Under the pieces are notes generated by a model. That model searched no databases and had not been told where the DNA came from. It saw only the letters and a list, made by a program, of their open reading frames with translations. The position numbers were made by a program, and so were the translations under genes. Shown here piece after piece: positions 10,367-16,619 of a stretch of 22,538 nucleotides of DNA (its first letter is position 1; each line of letters starts with the position of its first letter). The DNA is from a virus (Duplodnaviria > Heunggongvirae > Uroviricota > Caudoviricetes), in the IMG/VR virus record IMGVR_UViG_2667527827_000002. One strand, written 5' to 3'.

Positions 10367-10756
10367 TCAGGCAGCTGCACCCGCCGTTTTCTCGTACTTA
10401 CTGATAGTGATCTCGACCTTCCCTTCCGGGATAACCGGTCCCCACTCCACCAGCATTCTTTTCACCTGACTGTCGTCTTCCCACACCCCCGCGTGGGTCA
10501 GGGCGTCAAACAGCGCCTTGTTATAGTTGTCCAGATCGCGGATCCTGTTATCCGGAGGAAACAACACGATCTCCACTGAAGCAGGTGCCGACGTTGGTTT
10601 CGGCAGACGACGTAACTGCTCAACTATTGCTGCACACGCCGCGCTCTGGAATTTGCGCCCCGCCGCGCTTATCAGGCTCTTACCTGCAAACGCCACTTTG
10701 TTGGGGTGTCGCCAGTACGTGTTCACGCTGGGCGGAAAAGGCAGTATTAGCTTCAT
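10367..10756 (-). CDS. rusA: Holliday-junction resolvase RusA-like endonuclease
   Basis: 129 aa. MKLILPFPPSVNTYWRH… …DLDNYNKALFDALTHAGVWEDDSQV… are RusA-family hallmarks. The ATG overlaps the upstream stop (ATGA). Confidence 0.85.
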   Translation of the reverse strand: MKLILPFPPSVNTYWRHPNKVAFAGKSLISAAGRKFQSAACAAIVEQLRRLPKPTSAPASVEIVLFPPDNRIRDLDNYNKALFDALTHAGVWEDDSQVKRMLVEWGPVIPEGKVEITISKYEKTAGAAA

Positions 10757-11079
10757 ACTTTCAGGCCCCTCTCATGTAACCAGTGGGCTGCACGCAACCT
10801 GGCGTTCTCCTCACCGGCAAGCAGTGCGCGGATGATACCGACCGCCTCGCTGTCGTCGTCCTTCACCGCGGTATGAAGCGTGATGCCCCGGGCCACGCCA
10901 CGCTTTATCGTGATGACGCCTTTTTTCTCCAGTGCGCGAAGATGCTCCACCGCTGCATTCACTGAACGGTATCCCAGCATGGTTGCCACCTCCTGATTGG
11001 TTGGCGGGAAGCCACGTTCTTTCTGATAAGAAATCAGCATATCCAGCACCTGCTGCTGGCATTGAGTTAACGTCGTCAT
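10753..11079 (-). CDS. LexA N-terminal DNA-binding-domain-like protein (no protease domain)
   Basis: 108 aa. MTTLTQCQQQVLDMLISYQKERGFPPTNQEVATMLGYRSVNAAVEHLRALEKKGVITI… closely parallels the LexA winged-helix N-terminus (…[55 protein letters not shown]…). It lacks the S24 peptidase part. Start and stop overlap neighbours (ATGA). Confidence 0.75.
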   Translation of the reverse strand: MTTLTQCQQQVLDMLISYQKERGFPPTNQEVATMLGYRSVNAAVEHLRALEKKGVITIKRGVARGITLHTAVKDDDSEAVGIIRALLAGEENARLRAAHWLHERGLKV

Positions 11080-11729
11080 GCCGCCATCTCCCTGACCAGT
11101 TTTTCTGCCTGCTGGCGAACCTGCGCCAGAAAGGCCTCACCACATGCCTCAAGTTCATCGCGCCCGATGTAGCTGATTGCCGGTCCCTTCCAGGTCTTGT
11201 CGAAAACAGCAATAGCACCAGCGAAGAAAGCGCCTGTCGGCACCTGCTTCTCATCCTTCGGGATAAACCAGGCAGGCAGTTCAAAACCAATACGCCCGCG
11301 AATAAAAGCAATATGATCTGCATCTTCCGGCCACCACACTTCGCTGGTGGCAGCTTTGATCAGGAAAACATAGCGCCCGCCTTTATCACGCATGGCACTG
11401 GCATGCTTCATGATGTAACGCATGCCGGTGATGTATTGCCCCTCATGCTGACTGGCGCGGCTGTATGGGGGATTACCAAAGGCAGCACCTTTAAGCTCCG
11501 CAAGGCGTTCTGACCAGTCATGCGCCAGCGCGTTGTCTTCCGCCGTGTAATACGCAGCACATTTGGCGTTATCACCGTCAGTGAACAGATCCAGAACAAA
11601 CGGGCCAAACAGGGTGTTAATTCCCCAGAAAATGTTGTCCGGCGTGCGCCACTGATCGCCCACTTCCTTCAGTTCATGGGCTGGTTTGTTCCGCAGTTCC
11701 GCCAGCGCCTGGCAATATTTATTACTCAT
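11076..11729 (-). CDS. Phage Dam-type N6-adenine DNA methyltransferase (NPPY motif)
   Basis: 217 aa from ATG 11727-11729, which shares one base with the upstream TAA. Motif …AFGNPPYSRA… The track's longer version uses a GTG at 11762. Nin-region position is typical for orphan phage Dam. Confidence 0.85.
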   Translation of the reverse strand: MSNKYCQALAELRNKPAHELKEVGDQWRTPDNIFWGINTLFGPFVLDLFTDGDNAKCAAYYTAEDNALAHDWSERLAELKGAAFGNPPYSRASQHEGQYITGMRYIMKHASAMRDKGGRYVFLIKAATSEVWWPEDADHIAFIRGRIGFELPAWFIPKDEKQVPTGAFFAGAIAVFDKTWKGPAISYIGRDELEACGEAFLAQVRQQAEKLVREMAA

Positions 11730-12217
11730 TAAGCCCCCACGTAATTCCCTGAGAGATACCACTCTTCACCTGATGCAGCCCGCTTACTGCTTTTCCGTAA
11801 ACACCGTTCACGACGCGCCAGAAAATTGTTTCGTTCTGGCTGGGAGTGGCTTTCACGGAATGCCGCCATCCACACCGTTGCAGCACGACGGTATAAGCCC
11901 CTCGACTCCAGTTCTTCAGCCTGGCGGGTCAGGCACAAAATCACCCGGGGGTCGTTAGTGCCGACATAGAACTTGCGCACAGGTCTGGTTTCACGAACTG
12001 GTTGTGGTTCCGGCTCCTGCGCTCTCTCAGTCAGGCGCGAGAAATGTCTGCGTGTATCTCCTTCACAACGGTGAGCCACACGCCCACTCTGACGTAACTT
12101 GCTTGCTGACTGCAGAACGCGCTGCCGTGAGTAACCTGCAAAAGCATCCGCAATGTCTCCGGAAGTACAGCCCGGATGGGCTTCAATGAATTTCTGAACT
12201 TCATTCAAAATACTCAT
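11729..12217 (-). CDS. PerC-family-like phage protein (YfdN-like size), N-terminal wHTH-like extension
   Basis: 162 aa from ATG 12215-12217 (GGGGGTGA just upstream). C-terminal …LESRGLYRRAATVWMAAFRES…ERNNFLARRERCLRKS… resembles the PerC/Pch motif pattern as I recall it. Confidence 0.6.
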   Translation of the reverse strand: MSILNEVQKFIEAHPGCTSGDIADAFAGYSRQRVLQSASKLRQSGRVAHRCEGDTRRHFSRLTERAQEPEPQPVRETRPVRKFYVGTNDPRVILCLTRQAEELESRGLYRRAATVWMAAFRESHSQPERNNFLARRERCLRKSSKRAASGEEWYLSGNYVGA

Positions 12218-12219
12218 GC

Positions 12220-13212
12220 TCACCCCCTGAATCCTGCCGGGATCTGGCTGTAGTCCACGTTGTCGTAACTGGATTTGAAATATGGGTCTTCGCGTTTTTC
12301 TGTGTATGTGCTGACGGACGGCGATAAGCGCAGGGAAAGCTCATCCCATTTTTCCCGCAGCTTCGACGGGCTGAGCACGTTACGGCACCAGAACGGATCG
12401 CGGCTGACGCGGCTGTACATCTCGCAGATTTGTTTGTGAGTACGACCATCCTGCACACACATCAGGCGAATTTCGTTTGCCCAGGCTGTCCAGTTCGGTT
12501 CTTTGGGACGAACCACCTCGCCGTCACATTCGGCGGCCTGCTCGTACAGGGCGATGATTTTTTTCCAGAGCCACTGTGCGCAGGTCAAATCATCCTGCGT
12601 TCCCCACTGGCGCTTTTTAGGGCTGAATACAACCGCATCAGGATGGCGAGTTAAAAACTCCTGTTCAGCCGTTTGCGTGTCCGGTTGCGAAGCGTCCGGA
12701 CGAGAAGAGGTTTTATTCTCTGTAGTAATCTCTGTTGTATTCTCTGTAAGATCATTGGGCCATTTTGACCCGATGACAGCGTGTCGTTTTGAACCAATGG
12801 ATCGTGTCATTTTGCGCCCATCCATCAGGTCACTTTGACCCGATGGAGAAGTGCATTTTGACCTGATGGATTCGTTCACTTTGACCTCTTCTAAAAGCTC
12901 ACTTTCATAGTTGATCGTGTAGAAGTTGGTCATGTCACGCTTCGATTTATTGAGTTGCTCGCGACGCAAAACCCCAAGTGATTTCAGGCTTGCAAATGTG
13001 CGTTTCAGAGTGGACTCTGACCAGAACGGAAACTGCTCCAGCCACTGTTCTGTCGTGTTATAAACCCAGCGAATTCCGCCATGCTCAGTGCCTGAATTCG
13101 TTTCATTCAGCCAGTAATGAAGCTGCTGCAACACAATTGCCTCATTCAGACCAATACGGCATGCAAGATCACGATTTATCACAATGGGCTGGGATGTCAT
13201 TAACAGGCTCAT
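12220..13212 (-). CDS. Phage replication initiation protein (lambda O-like, iteron-binding), ori embedded in the gene
   Basis: 330 aa. ATG 13210-13212 overlaps the upstream stop (ATGA). Six 23-bp-spaced direct repeats lie inside the coding sequence and encode a repetitive linker (…SIGSKRHAVIGSKW…), as in lambda O. Confidence 0.75.
   Translation of the reverse strand: MSLLMTSQPIVINRDLACRIGLNEAIVLQQLHYWLNETNSGTEHGGIRWVYNTTEQWLEQFPFWSESTLKRTFASLKSLGVLRREQLNKSKRDMTNFYTINYESELLEEVKVNESIRSKCTSPSGQSDLMDGRKMTRSIGSKRHAVIGSKWPNDLTENTTEITTENKTSSRPDASQPDTQTAEQEFLTRHPDAVVFSPKKRQWGTQDDLTCAQWLWKKIIALYEQAAECDGEVVRPKEPNWTAWANEIRLMCVQDGRTHKQICEMYSRVSRDPFWCRNVLSPSKLREKWDELSLRLSPSVSTYTEKREDPYFKSSYDNVDYSQIPAGFRG
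12761..12888. repeat. Iteron array (six direct repeats, consensus about CAYTTTGACCYGATGG, 23-bp period): putative phage origin of replication
   Basis: Copies begin at about 12761, 12785, 12808, 12831, 12854 and 12877. An adjacent relatively AT-rich stretch with three tctctgt repeats (about 12700-12755) lies on the downstream side relative to the O-like gene. Confidence 0.75.
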
Positions 13213-13433
13213 GCCGCACCTCCGAGATGCTTCATGTTTTTTCCGGAGCGAAAGGCTATAAGCGGCATACTGACGCGGTAATTACGGCCCAGCGGTTCAC
13301 AAATCACCTTCTGACATTCACGGTCAACCAGGCTAACACGTAGAACATGCCCTGCAGGCGTGGTGTACCACTGACCGGGGCGAGGACAACGGAAAGTCTG
13401 ATTGGTAAATCGTTTGAAAATATTCCGGATCAT
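13209..13433 (-). CDS. Hypothetical small phage protein (74 aa)
   Basis: ORF with ATG 13431-13433 overlapping the Rha stop (ATGA), and its own stop overlapping the O-like start (ATGA). No recognisable domain; supported mainly by coupling and operon context. Confidence 0.5.
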   Translation of the reverse strand: MIRNIFKRFTNQTFRCPRPGQWYTTPAGHVLRVSLVDRECQKVICEPLGRNYRVSMPLIAFRSGKNMKHLGGAA

Positions 13434-14578
13434 TTGCGCCCCCTTACCTCTGAAGAGTTCAGCGACGAATGAATAAGACGGGCAAGAAATGCCGCATCGT
13501 TAATTCGGTCATACAGACTTACAGCCAGAGGTGATTCAGCTTTTTCCAGCATGGGATAAAGCTGCTGCAACCAGACCTGATGAATTGATGAAATGTAGGA
13601 ATAGAGAACGCTGGCGTTATGTGCAACGTCGCTCGGTACAGCGGGCTTTGAAAGCTGTTTCTCCATCTGGTTAAAGGCATTGATGTATGCCTCTTTGAAC
13701 TGGGCAGCACGTTTACCCGTGAAACCCATAGCAAGAAACGCAAAGCCGTCGCGGGTTATTTGATAGCAAGGTAGTTTGCGGCCTGTGCAATCGGTGTAAT
13801 CACTCACCGAAAAATTGCGGGCAGTGAATGATGCGGAACATTCAAGCGTGCGGATCTTTTTCAGTACATCGTCATGACGTTTGGAGAAGAAGTTGGCAAC
13901 AGCCAGGGATGAAGTAACAGCCTGACCATCAACGATGGCAATTTCAGGTTGAGTGAGGGTTGGGATCGTAGCCATGATGGCAGTCTCCGATAACAGTGAA
14001 TTACCTTCACCACCGGAAACGCCAATTTCGCTGGTGGTGAACTGAACGGGGTTGGCGTAACCGGCGTTATCGGAAACCGGCGCACCTTTCGGTGCCCCCG
14101 TCCAGCCCACCATAATTTGGGTGTGCACAGACGCAGACGATAAAAAAGACGCTGGCGCGTCATATATCGCCGATAACATTTCCAGGACGCCAATCCCGAC
14201 ACCCGCTTTATAAGGTGCCTGAACAGTGTAACGTCCCGGAATGGCAGAATCAATGTGCTGGTGGTCCTTCACACTCAACAAAATCACGCCTGAATTTCCA
14301 CAAAGGACTAAAGCACTCATGCGGGTAGTCTTTGCGAAGATAGATAACGCGCTGTGTTTCTGGCTCCCAACGAATAACATGGACATAAAGCCCTCTTCCG
14401 TCACGAAACCAGCGGTTAAGTTCCTGCACAACTCGCCCCCCACAGTCAGGTAAAGTTCTCTGTGGTTACTTACAGCCAGGTGATTTGGTAATCTGCATTC
14501 ATGCCGTAACAACAGGTGTTCAGCGACGCTGACCACCAGCTGTTGCGACAAACGGTTATTTGCCGTTAAACTGTTCAT
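13430..14578 (-). CDS. Rha-family phage regulatory protein with an unusual ~200-aa N-terminal extension (alternative: Rha alone from internal ATG 13975)
   Basis: 382-aa open frame. ATG 14576-14578 overlaps the stop of the upstream CII-position gene (ATGA). The Rha/ORF6N-like domain (…AIVDGQAVTSSLAVANFFSKRHDDVLKKIRTLE…CYQITRDGFAFLAMGFTGKRAAQFKEAYINAFNQMEKQL…) occupies residues about 205-305. An internal ATG at 13973-13975 has GGAG 9 nt upstream. Confidence 0.7.
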   Translation of the reverse strand: MNSLTANNRLSQQLVVSVAEHLLLRHECRLPNHLAVSNHRELYLTVGGELCRNLTAGFVTEEGFMSMLFVGSQKHSALSIFAKTTRMSALVLCGNSGVILLSVKDHQHIDSAIPGRYTVQAPYKAGVGIGVLEMLSAIYDAPASFLSSASVHTQIMVGWTGAPKGAPVSDNAGYANPVQFTTSEIGVSGGEGNSLLSETAIMATIPTLTQPEIAIVDGQAVTSSLAVANFFSKRHDDVLKKIRTLECSASFTARNFSVSDYTDCTGRKLPCYQITRDGFAFLAMGFTGKRAAQFKEAYINAFNQMEKQLSKPAVPSDVAHNASVLYSYISSIHQVWLQQLYPMLEKAESPLAVSLYDRINDAAFLARLIHSSLNSSEVRGRK

Positions 14579-15138
14579 GCGTTAGTTTCTCCACAGACAC
14601 AAAACGCCACGACGCCCGGAGCTGCACACTCGCGGGCGTCACTCTTTTCTGGAGCGCAAAAGATTTTGTAGACCAGTGCTGCATGCTCCTGGAGCTTCGA
14701 AATTGACAGATACAACTCATCATTAATTGCTGTCTGCTCGTGTGGCTCCACTACCCCATCTTCGATTGCCGAACGAATCTGCTTTGAGTAACTCCCGATC
14801 TGTTCGATGACTTCCAGCAGGCGCTGGTTTATATCGGCGTTCTCTACTTCCTCAAGTTCAGGAAGCGATACAAACACCCCACCAGCAGACTGTGCGACAG
14901 CATCCGCAATGTAGTGAGTGCCAGCCGCGCGCTGTAAAATCATTGCCCATCCCAGCGGGAAAATCTGATCGCCATCTGCACGAAGGCGGTTGAATAAAGC
15001 GTTCTCTGTTACATCCAGCCACTCAGCAGCTTCAGCGTAACCTCCCGGCAACGCCGCGATAGTTTTTCTGACAGCTTTCACGTACCACTCAGGCTGTTTT
15101 TCTACTTTCCAGTGATGCTTACCCACGGTTAGCCTCAT
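14575..15138 (-). CDS. Phage regulatory protein in the CII position (possibly YdaT/CII-like family)
   Basis: 187-aa ORF directly downstream of the Cro-like gene. ATG 15136-15138 has no obvious SD. The family assignment is tentative, based on position and size only. Confidence 0.6.
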   Translation of the reverse strand: MRLTVGKHHWKVEKQPEWYVKAVRKTIAALPGGYAEAAEWLDVTENALFNRLRADGDQIFPLGWAMILQRAAGTHYIADAVAQSAGGVFVSLPELEEVENADINQRLLEVIEQIGSYSKQIRSAIEDGVVEPHEQTAINDELYLSISKLQEHAALVYKIFCAPEKSDARECAAPGVVAFCVCGETNA

Positions 15139-15169
15139 CGTTCTGTGGTTAAAAATTGAAGGTGTTCTG

Positions 15170-15370
15170 TTAATCTTTCGGATAGATATCCGGTCTTAAG
15201 TCAGATTTCGTAATTGCACCTGACGTGCATTGCTCAAGTTTTTTAGCCAGCACAAAACTGGCTTTTTTATAACCATTGAAAACCAGCCGTAAGTAGCCTG
15301 GTGTTGAGCCAACTTTTCCGGCCAACTCGCCCTGCTGTTCTTTGGTTAAAGAGTCCCAATACGCTTTCAT
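15170..15370 (-). CDS. Cro-like HTH regulator (YdaS/Cro family-like)
   Basis: 66 aa from ATG 15368-15370 with GGAGG 10 nt upstream. HTH-like …LAGKVGSTPGYLRLVFNGYKKASFVLAKKLE… Divergent from the repressor gene. The 167-aa track ORF is an upstream read-through across the operator region. Confidence 0.7.
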   Translation of the reverse strand: MKAYWDSLTKEQQGELAGKVGSTPGYLRLVFNGYKKASFVLAKKLEQCTSGAITKSDLRPDIYPKD

Positions 15371-15372
15371 AC

Positions 15373-15444
15373 AATATGTACCTCCGATATACATATTACA
15401 TGATTGAGATGAACCTTCAAGATACTTGTACCCTATCGGTACAA
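15373..15444. promoter_or_regulatory. Immunity-region operators and divergent promoters (OR/PR/PRM analogue)
   Basis: O1 15373-15397 is aatatgta-N9-tacatatt and overlaps a candidate Cro promoter -10 (TAATAT on the minus strand = plus 15393-15398; -35 TTGAAG = plus 15415-15420). O2 15426-15444 is ttgtacc-ctatc-ggtacaa and overlaps a candidate -35 for a leaderless repressor transcript starting near 15461. Confidence 0.55.
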
Positions 15445-15460
15445 AGGTTTTAATTTCGTT

Positions 15461-16135
15461 ATGAAAACAGTCCATGACATCCGGCGGTCTAACGCCAGAA
15501 AACTGAGAGATGGTGTTGGCGGGAATTCTTCCTTTGCCACCATGATTGATCGCGAGCCAACCCAGACCAGCAGGTTTATGGGAGATGGTGCTACTAAAAA
15601 TATCGGTGACAGCATGGCACGGCACATCGAAAAATGTTTCGACCTGCCTGTCGGATGGCTTGATCAAGAACACCAGACAACAAACATCACAAAAAAACCT
15701 GATGTTTCAATTACTAACAAACAAATAACGTTAGTCCCTGTCATATCATGGGTACAGGCCGGAGCATGGAAAGAAGTTGGCTATTCTGAGGTTGATTTGA
15801 GCACAGCAGAAACTTATCCCTGCCCTGTACCCTGTGGCGAAATGACTTATATCTTGCGGGTGATTGGTGATTCAATGATTGATGAGTACCGCCCGGGAGA
15901 CATGATTTTTGTTGATCCTGAAGTCCCTGCCTGCCACGGTGACGACGTTATTGCATTGATGCACGATACAGGCGAAACCACCTTCAAGCGGTTGATAGAA
16001 GATGGAACACAGCGTTACCTCAAAGCATTAAACCCAAACTGGCCTGAACCTTACATTAAGATCAACGGTAATTGCTCTATAATTGGTACAGTGATTTTCT
16101 CAGGAAAACCAAGAAGATACAAAATAAAGGCCTAA
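15461..16135 (+). CDS. CI-like prophage repressor with C-terminal S24 (LexA-like) autopeptidase domain
   Basis: 224 aa. C-terminal domain …VIGDSMIDEYRPGDMIFVDPE…GETTFKRLIEDGTQRYLKALNPNWPEP… closely parallels lambda CI/LexA, with the Ser in GDSM, the Lys in TFKRL and a candidate Ala-Gly cleavage site (…VQAGAW…). ATG sits at the end of the operator region, consistent with a leaderless mRNA. Confidence 0.9.
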   Translation: MKTVHDIRRSNARKLRDGVGGNSSFATMIDREPTQTSRFMGDGATKNIGDSMARHIEKCFDLPVGWLDQEHQTTNITKKPDVSITNKQITLVPVISWVQAGAWKEVGYSEVDLSTAETYPCPVPCGEMTYILRVIGDSMIDEYRPGDMIFVDPEVPACHGDDVIALMHDTGETTFKRLIEDGTQRYLKALNPNWPEPYIKINGNCSIIGTVIFSGKPRRYKIKA

Positions 16136-16147
16136 TCAATATTTATA

Positions 16148-16170
16148 ACCTGCTTCGGCAGGTTTTTTTA
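16148..16170 (+). terminator. Rho-independent terminator after the repressor gene
   Basis: cctgc-ttcg-gcagg hairpin (16149-16162) followed by tttttttat (16163-16170), 13 nt after the repressor stop. Confidence 0.7.
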
Positions 16171-16173
16171 TAC

Positions 16174-16201
16174 TTGACAATGTACCCTTGAGATACATAA
16201 T
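16174..16201 (+). promoter_or_regulatory. PL-like early-left promoter with embedded operator O3
   Basis: -35 TTGACA (16174-16179), 16-bp spacer, -10 CATAAT (16196-16201). The spacer and -10 contain atgtacccttgagatacat (16180-16198), which matches O1 (atgtacctccgatatacat) at 15 of 19 positions. Confidence 0.55.
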
Positions 16202-16619
16202 GTATCTAAAAGAAACATAACACAGGCAAGATTAAACTAAATTTGGTTGTAACACGGCGTATGGCACATGCGTCGTTAGCGGTCTGGGGACGTTAAAGGG
16301 GACAATCCACTCCTTGCTCGAGCAAACAAACCAGGTAGCCGGAATGTGCAAGTCAATGATGATGCTGATAAGACGCCTAACCAGCGTGGCGATTCGGTTT
16401 GACGCCTGGGAAGAGACCAGGGTGCAACGATGAGGGCATTTATGGAACCGCGACAAAGTGTGGTGCCGTAACTGGCTAAGTGCTCTCAGCGTTGTGGTGA
16501 ATGCGCAGGCTGATGCGCGAAAGACATTGCAGCTATTGCGGAAAAGAGCTGTTCGGCGGGGCAATTAAACGCCCGTGAGAGTCTGAAATAACCGCAAGCC
16601 GGAGATCAGCACCGGTCAC

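Follow-up and report, generated by a model that had tools for sequence, protein, structure and literature searches.

Prophage early gene yfdN is predicted to join a winged-helix domain to a PerC/ANR-type core

PerC, encoded on the pEAF plasmid of enteropathogenic Escherichia coli (EPEC), and PchA, PchB and PchC, encoded by prophage morons of enterohaemorrhagic E. coli (EHEC), are single-domain proteins of 89-104 amino acids (aa) that belong to Pfam family PF06069 and are, within that family, the only proteins shown to activate the enterocyte effacement locus (LEE) and its gene ler (PMC5931665). Pch proteins activate LEE1 by displacing H-NS/StpA/Hha complexes, relieving H-NS silencing (PMC4764244). 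A second group of small regulators, the ANR family (Aar, Rnr, Cnr), comprises single-domain proteins of 4-10 kDa with a three-helix core of ~60 residues, which usually accompany an AraC-family gene and bind AraC-family activators (AggR), H-NS and Ler directly (PMC4983702, PMC10148876). Here we describe yfdN, a gene that shares a core of ~45 residues with PerC and PchA/B/C and lies on the minus strand of a 22,538-nucleotide stretch of DNA from a member of the Caudoviricetes (IMG/VR record IMGVR_UViG_2667527827_000002), referred to below as the window. Its product, YfdN, has a C-terminal domain with a predicted three-helix core like that of ANR proteins and, unlike PerC and Pch proteins, is 162-164 aa long with an additional winged helix and linker.

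Other carriers of the PerC core differ from the LEE activators in their effects. Activation of ler reaches at least 4-fold with PchA, PchB and PchC but stays below 2-fold with PchE and is absent with PchD (PMC5931665), while PchE represses csgD/curli and adhesins and promotes flagella (PMC6265319, PMC7369912). Among proteins encoded by phage-inducible chromosomal islands (PICIs), EcCIMP1_025 represses LEE1, the homologues of EDL933 and CFT073 have no effect, and the authors of that work suspect that the PerC-annotated repressor is an ANR protein (PMC11773190). Membership of the PerC family, therefore, does not predict LEE activation. PchD, PchE and the PICI-encoded PerC-like proteins (EcCIEDL933, EcCICFT073, EcCIMP1_025) resemble YfdN in carrying the PerC core on mobile elements but measure 89-90 aa, consist of a single domain and are encoded in SpLE1 or in satellite-like elements, where primase and single-stranded DNA-binding protein genes lie next to them.

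The initial annotation of the window had reported a PerC/Pch-like regulator homologue at 11729-12217; these coordinates are right, and the strand, which had been left unstated, is minus. The gene encodes a small basic protein (pI ~10) that we divide as follows, with residue numbers here and below referring to a 164-aa form.

11729..12217, minus strand: yfdN coding sequence, from the open reading frame (ORF) list and the sequence; ATG at 12217, stop codon TAA at 11729-11731, 162 codons
12026..12217, minus strand: winged helix-turn-helix domain (predicted), residues 3-66; H1, short strand, H2, H3 recognition helix and beta-hairpin wing
11951..12025, minus strand: linker, proline- and charge-rich, predicted disordered, residues 67-91
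11771..11950, minus strand: PerC/ANR-type three-helix core (predicted), residues 92-151; motif AxxLExRGLYRRAATVW...ER...RRxxCL
11732..11770, minus strand: C-terminal tail; motif W-Y/C-L-A/S-G-x-Y/F-x-G, which replaces the last third of the PerC model

The 164-aa form begins at an in-frame GTG at 12223, the start annotated in RefSeq, which overlaps the stop codon of the upstream gene. We regard the ATG at 12217, two codons downstream of the GTG, as the better start because homologues in other genera begin with ‘MSL...’ at that codon and because a G-rich, Shine-Dalgarno-like run (AGGGGG) lies better spaced, 5 nt upstream. Plus-strand ORFs that overlap the gene (for example, 11686-11958 and 12004-12189) had no Rfam family mapping onto them and, lying under a conserved minus-strand gene, were treated as chance ORFs.

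A PerC pattern had been noted in the C-terminal half of the protein, with a search against PF06069 proposed as the check. This search scored the protein at 36.2 bits, above the gathering cut-off of 22.6 (E = 7.2e-9, residues 98-149), and all 32 of 32 diverse family members matched the model as well (best E = 4.3e-11). We consider the PerC match of YfdN confirmed and not due to chance. It covers, at the same time, only positions 5-56 of the 90 in the model, and the last third is absent from YfdN. When YfdN-type proteins were aligned with PerC, taken from the plasmid of EPEC E2348/69, and with PchA, PchD and PchE of O157:H7 Sakai, the pattern ‘A..LE.KG.YRRAA..W...R...RR..C’ proved invariant in its columns L, G, R-A, R and C. 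The BLASTP alignments are limited to 44 residues for PchA, at 41% identity, and to 46 residues for PerC, at 37%; over the aligned stretch, identity was 23% to PchD and 31% to PchE. Where PerC and Pch proteins keep ~35 further C-terminal residues (model positions 57-90; ‘KQAV..Y..MG...FR.Y’ in PerC, PchA, PchD and PchE), YfdN instead carries a tail that these four proteins lack. It ends in ‘WYLSGNYVGA’, and residues G159 and G163 are near-invariant in the 32 diverse members, although the tail is modeled at low confidence.

Structure prediction was based on an AlphaFold2 model built on 17 homologues (mean predicted local distance difference test score (pLDDT) 76.5). Its C-terminal domain consists of helices at residues 92-107, 111-124 and 128-151, with pLDDT values of ~90, and its structural neighbors were surveyed in the PDB and in BFVD. 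Foldseek against BFVD, a comparison of one prediction with another, placed the domain on a 60-aa phage ‘ANR family’ protein with a root-mean-square deviation (rmsd) of 0.6 Å, a template modeling (TM) score of 0.92 and 24% identity. The NCBIfam ANR model NF033650 scored YfdN at 23.7 bits (E = 3.1e-5, residues 96-142), below its cut-off of 32, and PerC, PchA, PchD and PchE were also sub-threshold on this model over the same core (13.6-18.2 bits). We read this as suggesting that PerC, Pch and ANR share one ancient three-helix module, of which YfdN would be a two-domain derivative. YfdN nevertheless differs from ANR proteins in scoring below the ANR cut-off, in having a predicted DNA-binding domain and in lacking an AraC-family neighbor.

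The N-terminal extension of ~100 aa that had been recognized alongside the PerC pattern is real but need no longer be called unassigned, as it can now be divided into a predicted winged helix and a linker. In the AlphaFold2 model, residues 5-15, 21-27 and 33-46 form helices and residues 49-54 and 57-62 form strands (pLDDT 80-89). Foldseek against the PDB returned almost only winged helices for this domain (ArsR, SlyA, MarR, BlaI, MecI, SmtB, PerR), with a probability of 1.00 and rmsd values of 1.4-3.2 Å over ~60 residues; the E-values were weak, as expected for so small a domain. Searched against the sequences of solved structures, a full-length family profile had no match at E <= 10, while a profile built from the N-terminal domains of 31 diverse family members matched MarR/EmrR 2fa5 (E = 3e-5), the BlaI DNA-binding domain 1p6r (3.6e-5) and MarR 3bpv (1.2e-4), aligning with these MarR and BlaI proteins at the recognition helix. 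Individual relatives additionally matched the Pfam families MarR_2, Penicillinase_R, HTH_24 and PaaX. The N terminus of YfdN is thus a MarR/BlaI-like winged helix-turn-helix domain, predicted to bind DNA. Its 64 residues have the same H1-b-H2-H3-hairpin topology as the winged helices of MarR, BlaI and ArsR, but YfdN lacks both the dimerization helices of MarR-type proteins and the C-terminal sensor domain of BlaI-type proteins and has the PerC core as its effector part instead. The C-terminal core is better conserved across the family than the winged helix (mean pairwise identity 37% versus 24%). Between the two domains, pLDDT falls below 50 at residues 66-81, and across the family the linker shows no sequence conservation and has a variable length of 6 to 29 residues. 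A possible homology of the N-terminal domain to lambda Ren was considered and not adopted: PHROG 142 (‘Ren-like exclusion protein’) matched residues 1-68 weakly (E = 0.0039), hhalign of the N-domain profile with lambda Ren was also weak (probability 37.6% over 47 columns). Lambda ren and yfdN both directly follow replication genes. We regard the homology as a weak lead.

The gene is yfdN, a common prophage gene already present in public annotation. YfdN of the window is 96% identical (158/164 residues) to YfdN of E. coli K-12 (b2357) in the cryptic prophage CPS-53, where yfdN is flanked by the remnants yfdO (O-like) and yfdM (Dam), matching its neighbors in the window. In RefSeq, E. coli genomes carry the gene under the label ‘yfdN: PerC family transcriptional regulator’, and the protein is matched end to end by PHROG 1324 (‘transcriptional activator’; E = 6.5e-78). 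Hence, neither the gene nor its PerC label nor its location in a prophage is new. Megablast found a match in 2664/5426 complete E. coli genomes, and copies reside in the functional temperate phages SfII, SfIV, SfV (orf40), mEp460 and ST64B (sb43) and in Stx2c- and Stx2a-converting phages of EHEC. The C-terminal 83 residues are 92-100% identical to E. coli and Shigella phage copies and 76% identical to that of Salmonella phage ST64B. Between YfdN of the window and its orthologues in K-12, SfV, SfII, SfIV, mEp460, ST64B and the Stx2c phages we saw no difference of substance; what sets the window copy apart is a prophage with e14-type immunity genes (ymfK/ymfT/ymfL) that is truncated after a late-region methyltransferase. 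An exhaustive HMMER search of 1.84 billion representatives returned only 100 clusters at E <= 1e-3. These included full-length two-domain relatives of 140-165 aa down to ~26-39% identity, the two-domain architecture persisting to ~25-30% identity, and the host genera were all Enterobacterales (Escherichia, Shigella, Salmonella, Citrobacter, Hafnia, Enterobacter, Kosakonia, Pantoea, Kluyvera).

Around yfdN, the following features define the early operon and its control.

12220..13212, minus strand: O-like/DnaD-like replication initiator, upstream neighbor (PHROG 391 ‘replication initiation O-like’, E = 1e-101)
11076..11729, minus strand: phage Dam-type N6-adenine methyltransferase, downstream neighbor (Pfam PF05869 Dam, E = 9.8e-46)
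10753..11079, minus strand: 108-aa protein consisting only of a LexA DNA-binding domain (Pfam LexA_DNA_bind, E = 2.9e-19; PHROG 362 ‘transcriptional repressor’)
15461..16135, plus strand: cI/LexA-like repressor of ymfK type with an S24 self-cleaving peptidase (Pfam Peptidase_S24, E = 1.5e-26)

The TGA stop codon of the O-like gene lies 2 nt before the yfdN ATG, and the ATG of the Dam gene overlaps the yfdN stop codon (TAATG). The ymfK-type repressor is divergent from the operon, and the closest complete prophage likewise has ymfT and ymfL adjacent to a repressor annotated as ymfK (‘LexA family protein’). Reading along the minus strand from the repressor, the order is Cro-like helix-turn-helix (HTH) protein, CII/CP76-like, Rha/Ash, a 74-aa ORF, O-like, yfdN and Dam, followed by the LexA-DNA-binding-domain-only protein, RusA, KilA-N, DUF968 and Q. 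Consensus scans of the minus strand across 10500-16500 found no sigma-70-like promoter match and, within the same interval, no terminator-like site downstream of 13739. Given the tight packing and the absence of such matches, the earlier placement in the early operon is correct: in this rightward operon, which the repressor controls, yfdN follows the O-like replication gene and precedes the Dam/nin-type genes that lie upstream of Q. No P/DnaC/DnaB-type loader or helicase gene follows the O-like initiator, which is the sole recognizable replication gene in the window; yfdN fills the position held by P and ren in lambda. The 108-aa LexA-type protein, encoded upstream of RusA, lacks an S24 peptidase and could compete for LexA boxes after induction; no study of it was found in the literature.

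This arrangement is conserved well beyond close relatives. Roughly 70 related loci, including those of YfdN proteins just 25-37% identical, keep the order CII, O-like, YfdN, [methyltransferase], LexA-DNA-binding-domain protein, RusA ... DUF968, Q, with the same O-like neighbor upstream. The slot after yfdN is occupied by any of three unrelated adenine methyltransferase families (Dam PF05869, D12 PF02086 and MT-A70 PF05063; examples are L008:5444-6268, L007:5471-6139 and L061:5432-6610), usually with overlapping stop and start codons, and is empty in eight fetched loci (L020, L021, L027, L031, L039, L044, L068, L071). We interpret it as a case of non-orthologous replacement at a fixed position. 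Nearly all related loci that extend far enough have a LexA-DNA-binding-domain gene after yfdN, with or without a methyltransferase. In Kluyvera prophages (L075:3935-4387 from Kluyvera ascorbata; L076-L080), the YfdN-type gene, whose product combines a MarR_2-like winged helix with the PerC core, lies in a different early operon with the order exonuclease VIII/RecE-like, RecT, YfdN-like, DUF4060, small HTH protein and an integrase on the opposite strand. Throughout, the YfdN-type gene is a phage early gene. This is unlike perC, which lies in the plasmid perABC operon, pchA, a moron of Sp4 lying in reverse orientation between Q/tRNA and lysis genes, pchD, which sits in SpLE1 beside ibrA/ybdM, and pchE in the satellite-like Sp7 element. 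The winged-helix assignment, the restriction of the PerC similarity to a core common to ANR, with the last third of the PerC model absent, and the strongly conserved early-operon slot, unlike the positions of PchA, PchD and PchE, are what the present analysis adds.

Further features of the prophage concern its immunity region and its boundary. The region 15170-16135 is of e14 type, with a ymfK LexA-like S24 repressor, ymfT (Cro/YdaS-like) and ymfL (CII/CP76-like), and the rest of the early operon is SfV/mEp460/CPS-53-like, indicating a mosaic prophage. Upstream of the O-like gene and yfdN, Rfam identified a C4 antisense RNA (RF01695, 14030-14117, minus strand, 82.8 bits) back to back with an isrK Hfq-binding RNA (RF01394, 14142-14218, minus strand, 61.5 bits); the pair resembles the antirepressor control modules of P1 immI/Gifsy-1 IsrK type. 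Both RNAs lie inside a 382-codon ORF (13430-14578) with Ash and Rha domains, which is probably over-called at its 5' end (a RefSeq relative has 321 aa), and a terminator-like hairpin at 14161-14148 falls within the isrK match. On the late side, the prophage ends abruptly past the late-region DNA methyltransferase (5776-6828), with the junction at ~5715-5725, where it meets a BigA/YdbA autotransporter gene that is truncated (1069-5703), along with pdxI/ydbC (1-861). The closest complete prophage continues after this methyltransferase with essD, rrrD and genes for lysis, terminase and portal, and no complete E. coli genome covers >=80% of the window. As the abrupt end leaves it without lysis and structural genes, the prophage is a defective remnant on that side, with repressor and early operon kept.

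Evidence on expression and selection comes from published transcriptomes and from codon comparisons. In uropathogenic E. coli (UPEC) CFT073, yfdN was up 12.6-fold together with adjacent prophage genes in a dataset in which SOS genes were also up (PMC5320621), which fits expression of yfdN on prophage derepression. Between yfdN of the window and the copy in strain 219, we counted 11 synonymous and 4 non-synonymous codon changes; a dN/dS of ~0.1, from small counts, suggests signs of purifying selection. Several leads were set aside. In a filamentation screen of UTI89, a 2.5-kb fragment with ‘yfdN2’ and four other genes was scored and not dissected, so that we drew no function from it; the glycogen-excess phenotype of an ASKA yfdN clone and a predicted interactome cluster for ‘negative regulation of transcription’ were both too indirect to use.

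Our preferred reading, held with a little better than even confidence, is that YfdN is a derepression-induced, DNA-targeted regulator whose PerC/ANR core targets either a nucleoid silencer or some partner regulator. As a conserved delayed-early gene of lambdoid prophages of Enterobacterales, yfdN would stay unexpressed until derepression of the prophage, for example, by SOS, as we infer from its tight packing downstream of a LexA-like self-cleaving repressor. The winged helix would then place YfdN on specific DNA sites, and its status as the fastest-diverging domain is consistent with varying site specificity. By analogy with what has been described for Pch and ANR proteins, the common partner contacted by the more conserved PerC/ANR core would most likely be a nucleoid silencer of the H-NS family or another regulator, and the outcome would be a local change in transcription. 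Host virulence loci are no more likely to be its targets than are phage genes or other genes acquired horizontally. A narrower proposal, possible but tentative, is that YfdN-type proteins are DNA-targeted PerC/ANR modules in which the winged helix tethers an H-NS-modulating domain to its sites, such that SOS derepression would locally lift or impose silencing on phage or host genes. Our confidence in the anti-silencing step taken alone is much less than in the overall picture. The circuit of YfdN might also include its conserved pair of neighbors, the optional adenine methyltransferase and the protein with only a LexA DNA-binding domain.

Several points weigh against the preferred reading. Winged helices mediate protein-protein contacts too, and a helical hairpin is a simple fold, able to match by convergence. 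The proposed PerC-ANR link draws on sub-threshold sequence scores and predicted structures, and the AlphaFold2 model, while predicting both domains of YfdN well, does not predict their relative orientation (predicted TM score (pTM) 0.40). The K-12 protein is still annotated as an ‘uncharacterized protein’, and the literature open to searching contained no report of DNA binding, a partner or a regulon for YfdN. Finally, compared with the K-12 copy, that of the window shows 3 synonymous and 6 non-synonymous changes, which indicates no constraint in that cryptic remnant.

One alternative is an ANR-like anti-activator working through protein contacts only, in which the C-terminal domain would sequester an AraC/XylS-family activator or H-NS in solution and the winged helix would serve to dimerize or to bind a partner instead of targeting DNA. 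The sub-threshold ANR match at residues 96-142 and the near-perfect superposition on the phage ‘ANR family’ model agree with it, as do the direct binding of AggR, H-NS and Ler by ANR proteins (PMC4983702, PMC10148876) and the repressor behavior of the PerC-annotated PICI protein suspected to be an ANR (PMC11773190). We hold it unlikely: the ANR score stays below its cut-off (23.7 versus 32) where the PerC score exceeds its own, ANR proteins are single-domain proteins of 4-10 kDa, the N-terminal domain matches DNA-binding MarR/BlaI winged helices at the recognition helix, and the window holds no linked AraC-family gene.

YfdN could, alternatively, be a phage-internal accessory factor that either controls the neighboring cassette with its orphan adenine methyltransferase or assists the O-like initiator as a co-factor in the P/Ren slot. 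Its start and stop codons overlap or abut both neighbors, the presence of three unrelated methyltransferase families in the next slot points to a conserved functional slot, the O-like gene is followed by no P/DnaC-like loader gene, and the weak Ren matches (PHROG E = 0.0039, hhalign probability 38%) would suit such a role. Eight loci in which yfdN directly precedes the LexA-DNA-binding-domain gene with no methyltransferase, and the Kluyvera gene that follows recE-recT by an integrase, away from replication and methyltransferase genes, nevertheless make this doubtful. We considered a functional bond between yfdN and the adenine methyltransferase in particular; the methyltransferase-free loci and the Kluyvera context weaken it.

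From the activation of virulence loci such as LEE by prophage-encoded Pch homologues, the initial annotation had gone on to suggest that the gene could couple prophage state to host gene regulation. As a virulence activator of the Pch type, YfdN would activate ler/LEE or an equivalent horizontally acquired locus upon induction. The PerC match above threshold and the core common to PerC and PchA speak for it, and yfdN is carried by Stx2c/Stx2a-converting phages of EHEC. Moreover, ‘the K12 unique PerC homologue’, as yfdN was called, was deleted from K-12 as a precaution against possible interference before ler::lacZ measurements (PMC5931665). Literature open to searching yielded no experimental study of YfdN itself, including any LEE1/ler assay. 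What argues against a virulence activator is that just 44-46 residues align, with the C-terminal third kept by PerC, PchA, PchD and PchE absent and a DNA-binding domain added, that K-12, about half of all complete E. coli genomes and several further genera of Enterobacterales carry the family, and that PchA, PchD and PchE lie outside early operons, unlike yfdN. The relatives, too, are discouraging, with no effect of PchD, a <2-fold effect of PchE, none of the EDL933 and CFT073 PICI homologues and repression by EcCIMP1_025 (PMC5931665, PMC11773190). No LEE gene lies within the window. YfdN is, thus, not a demonstrated LEE activator, and we judge such a role quite improbable. Of the proposed coupling between prophage state and gene regulation, what stays plausible is expression on derepression; the step to control of virulence is not supported, with a similarity confined to 44-46 core residues, a family that extends to K-12 and relatives that are inactive or repressive.

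That yfdN is a decaying relic without current function is very improbable, for although the prophage of the window has lost its lysis and structural genes and the copy in the cryptic K-12 CPS-53 remnant shows 3 synonymous against 6 non-synonymous changes, the frame is intact and 96-99% identical to copies in the functional phages SfII, SfIV, SfV, mEp460 and Stx2c phages, motifs are conserved across genera with a dN/dS of ~0.1 against the strain 219 copy, and the repressor and surrounding early operon are intact.

These comparisons bear on how a common annotation is to be understood. The label ‘PerC family’ invites a virulence reading since PerC and Pch are LEE switches, while in YfdN it covers a 45-residue core only. 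With the label confined to the core, with the gene present in K-12 and about half of complete E. coli genomes, and with relatives that leave LEE unaffected or repress it, taking the annotation to mean ‘virulence activator’ is unwarranted. YfdN joins the PerC core to a recognizable, predicted DNA-binding domain that is absent from PerC, Pch and ANR proteins and offers a tractable handle on the biochemistry of the core. If YfdN does act as a tethered modulator of silencing, it would represent a widespread SOS-linked regulatory input, with a copy in roughly every second complete E. coli genome, and one available even from a defective prophage.

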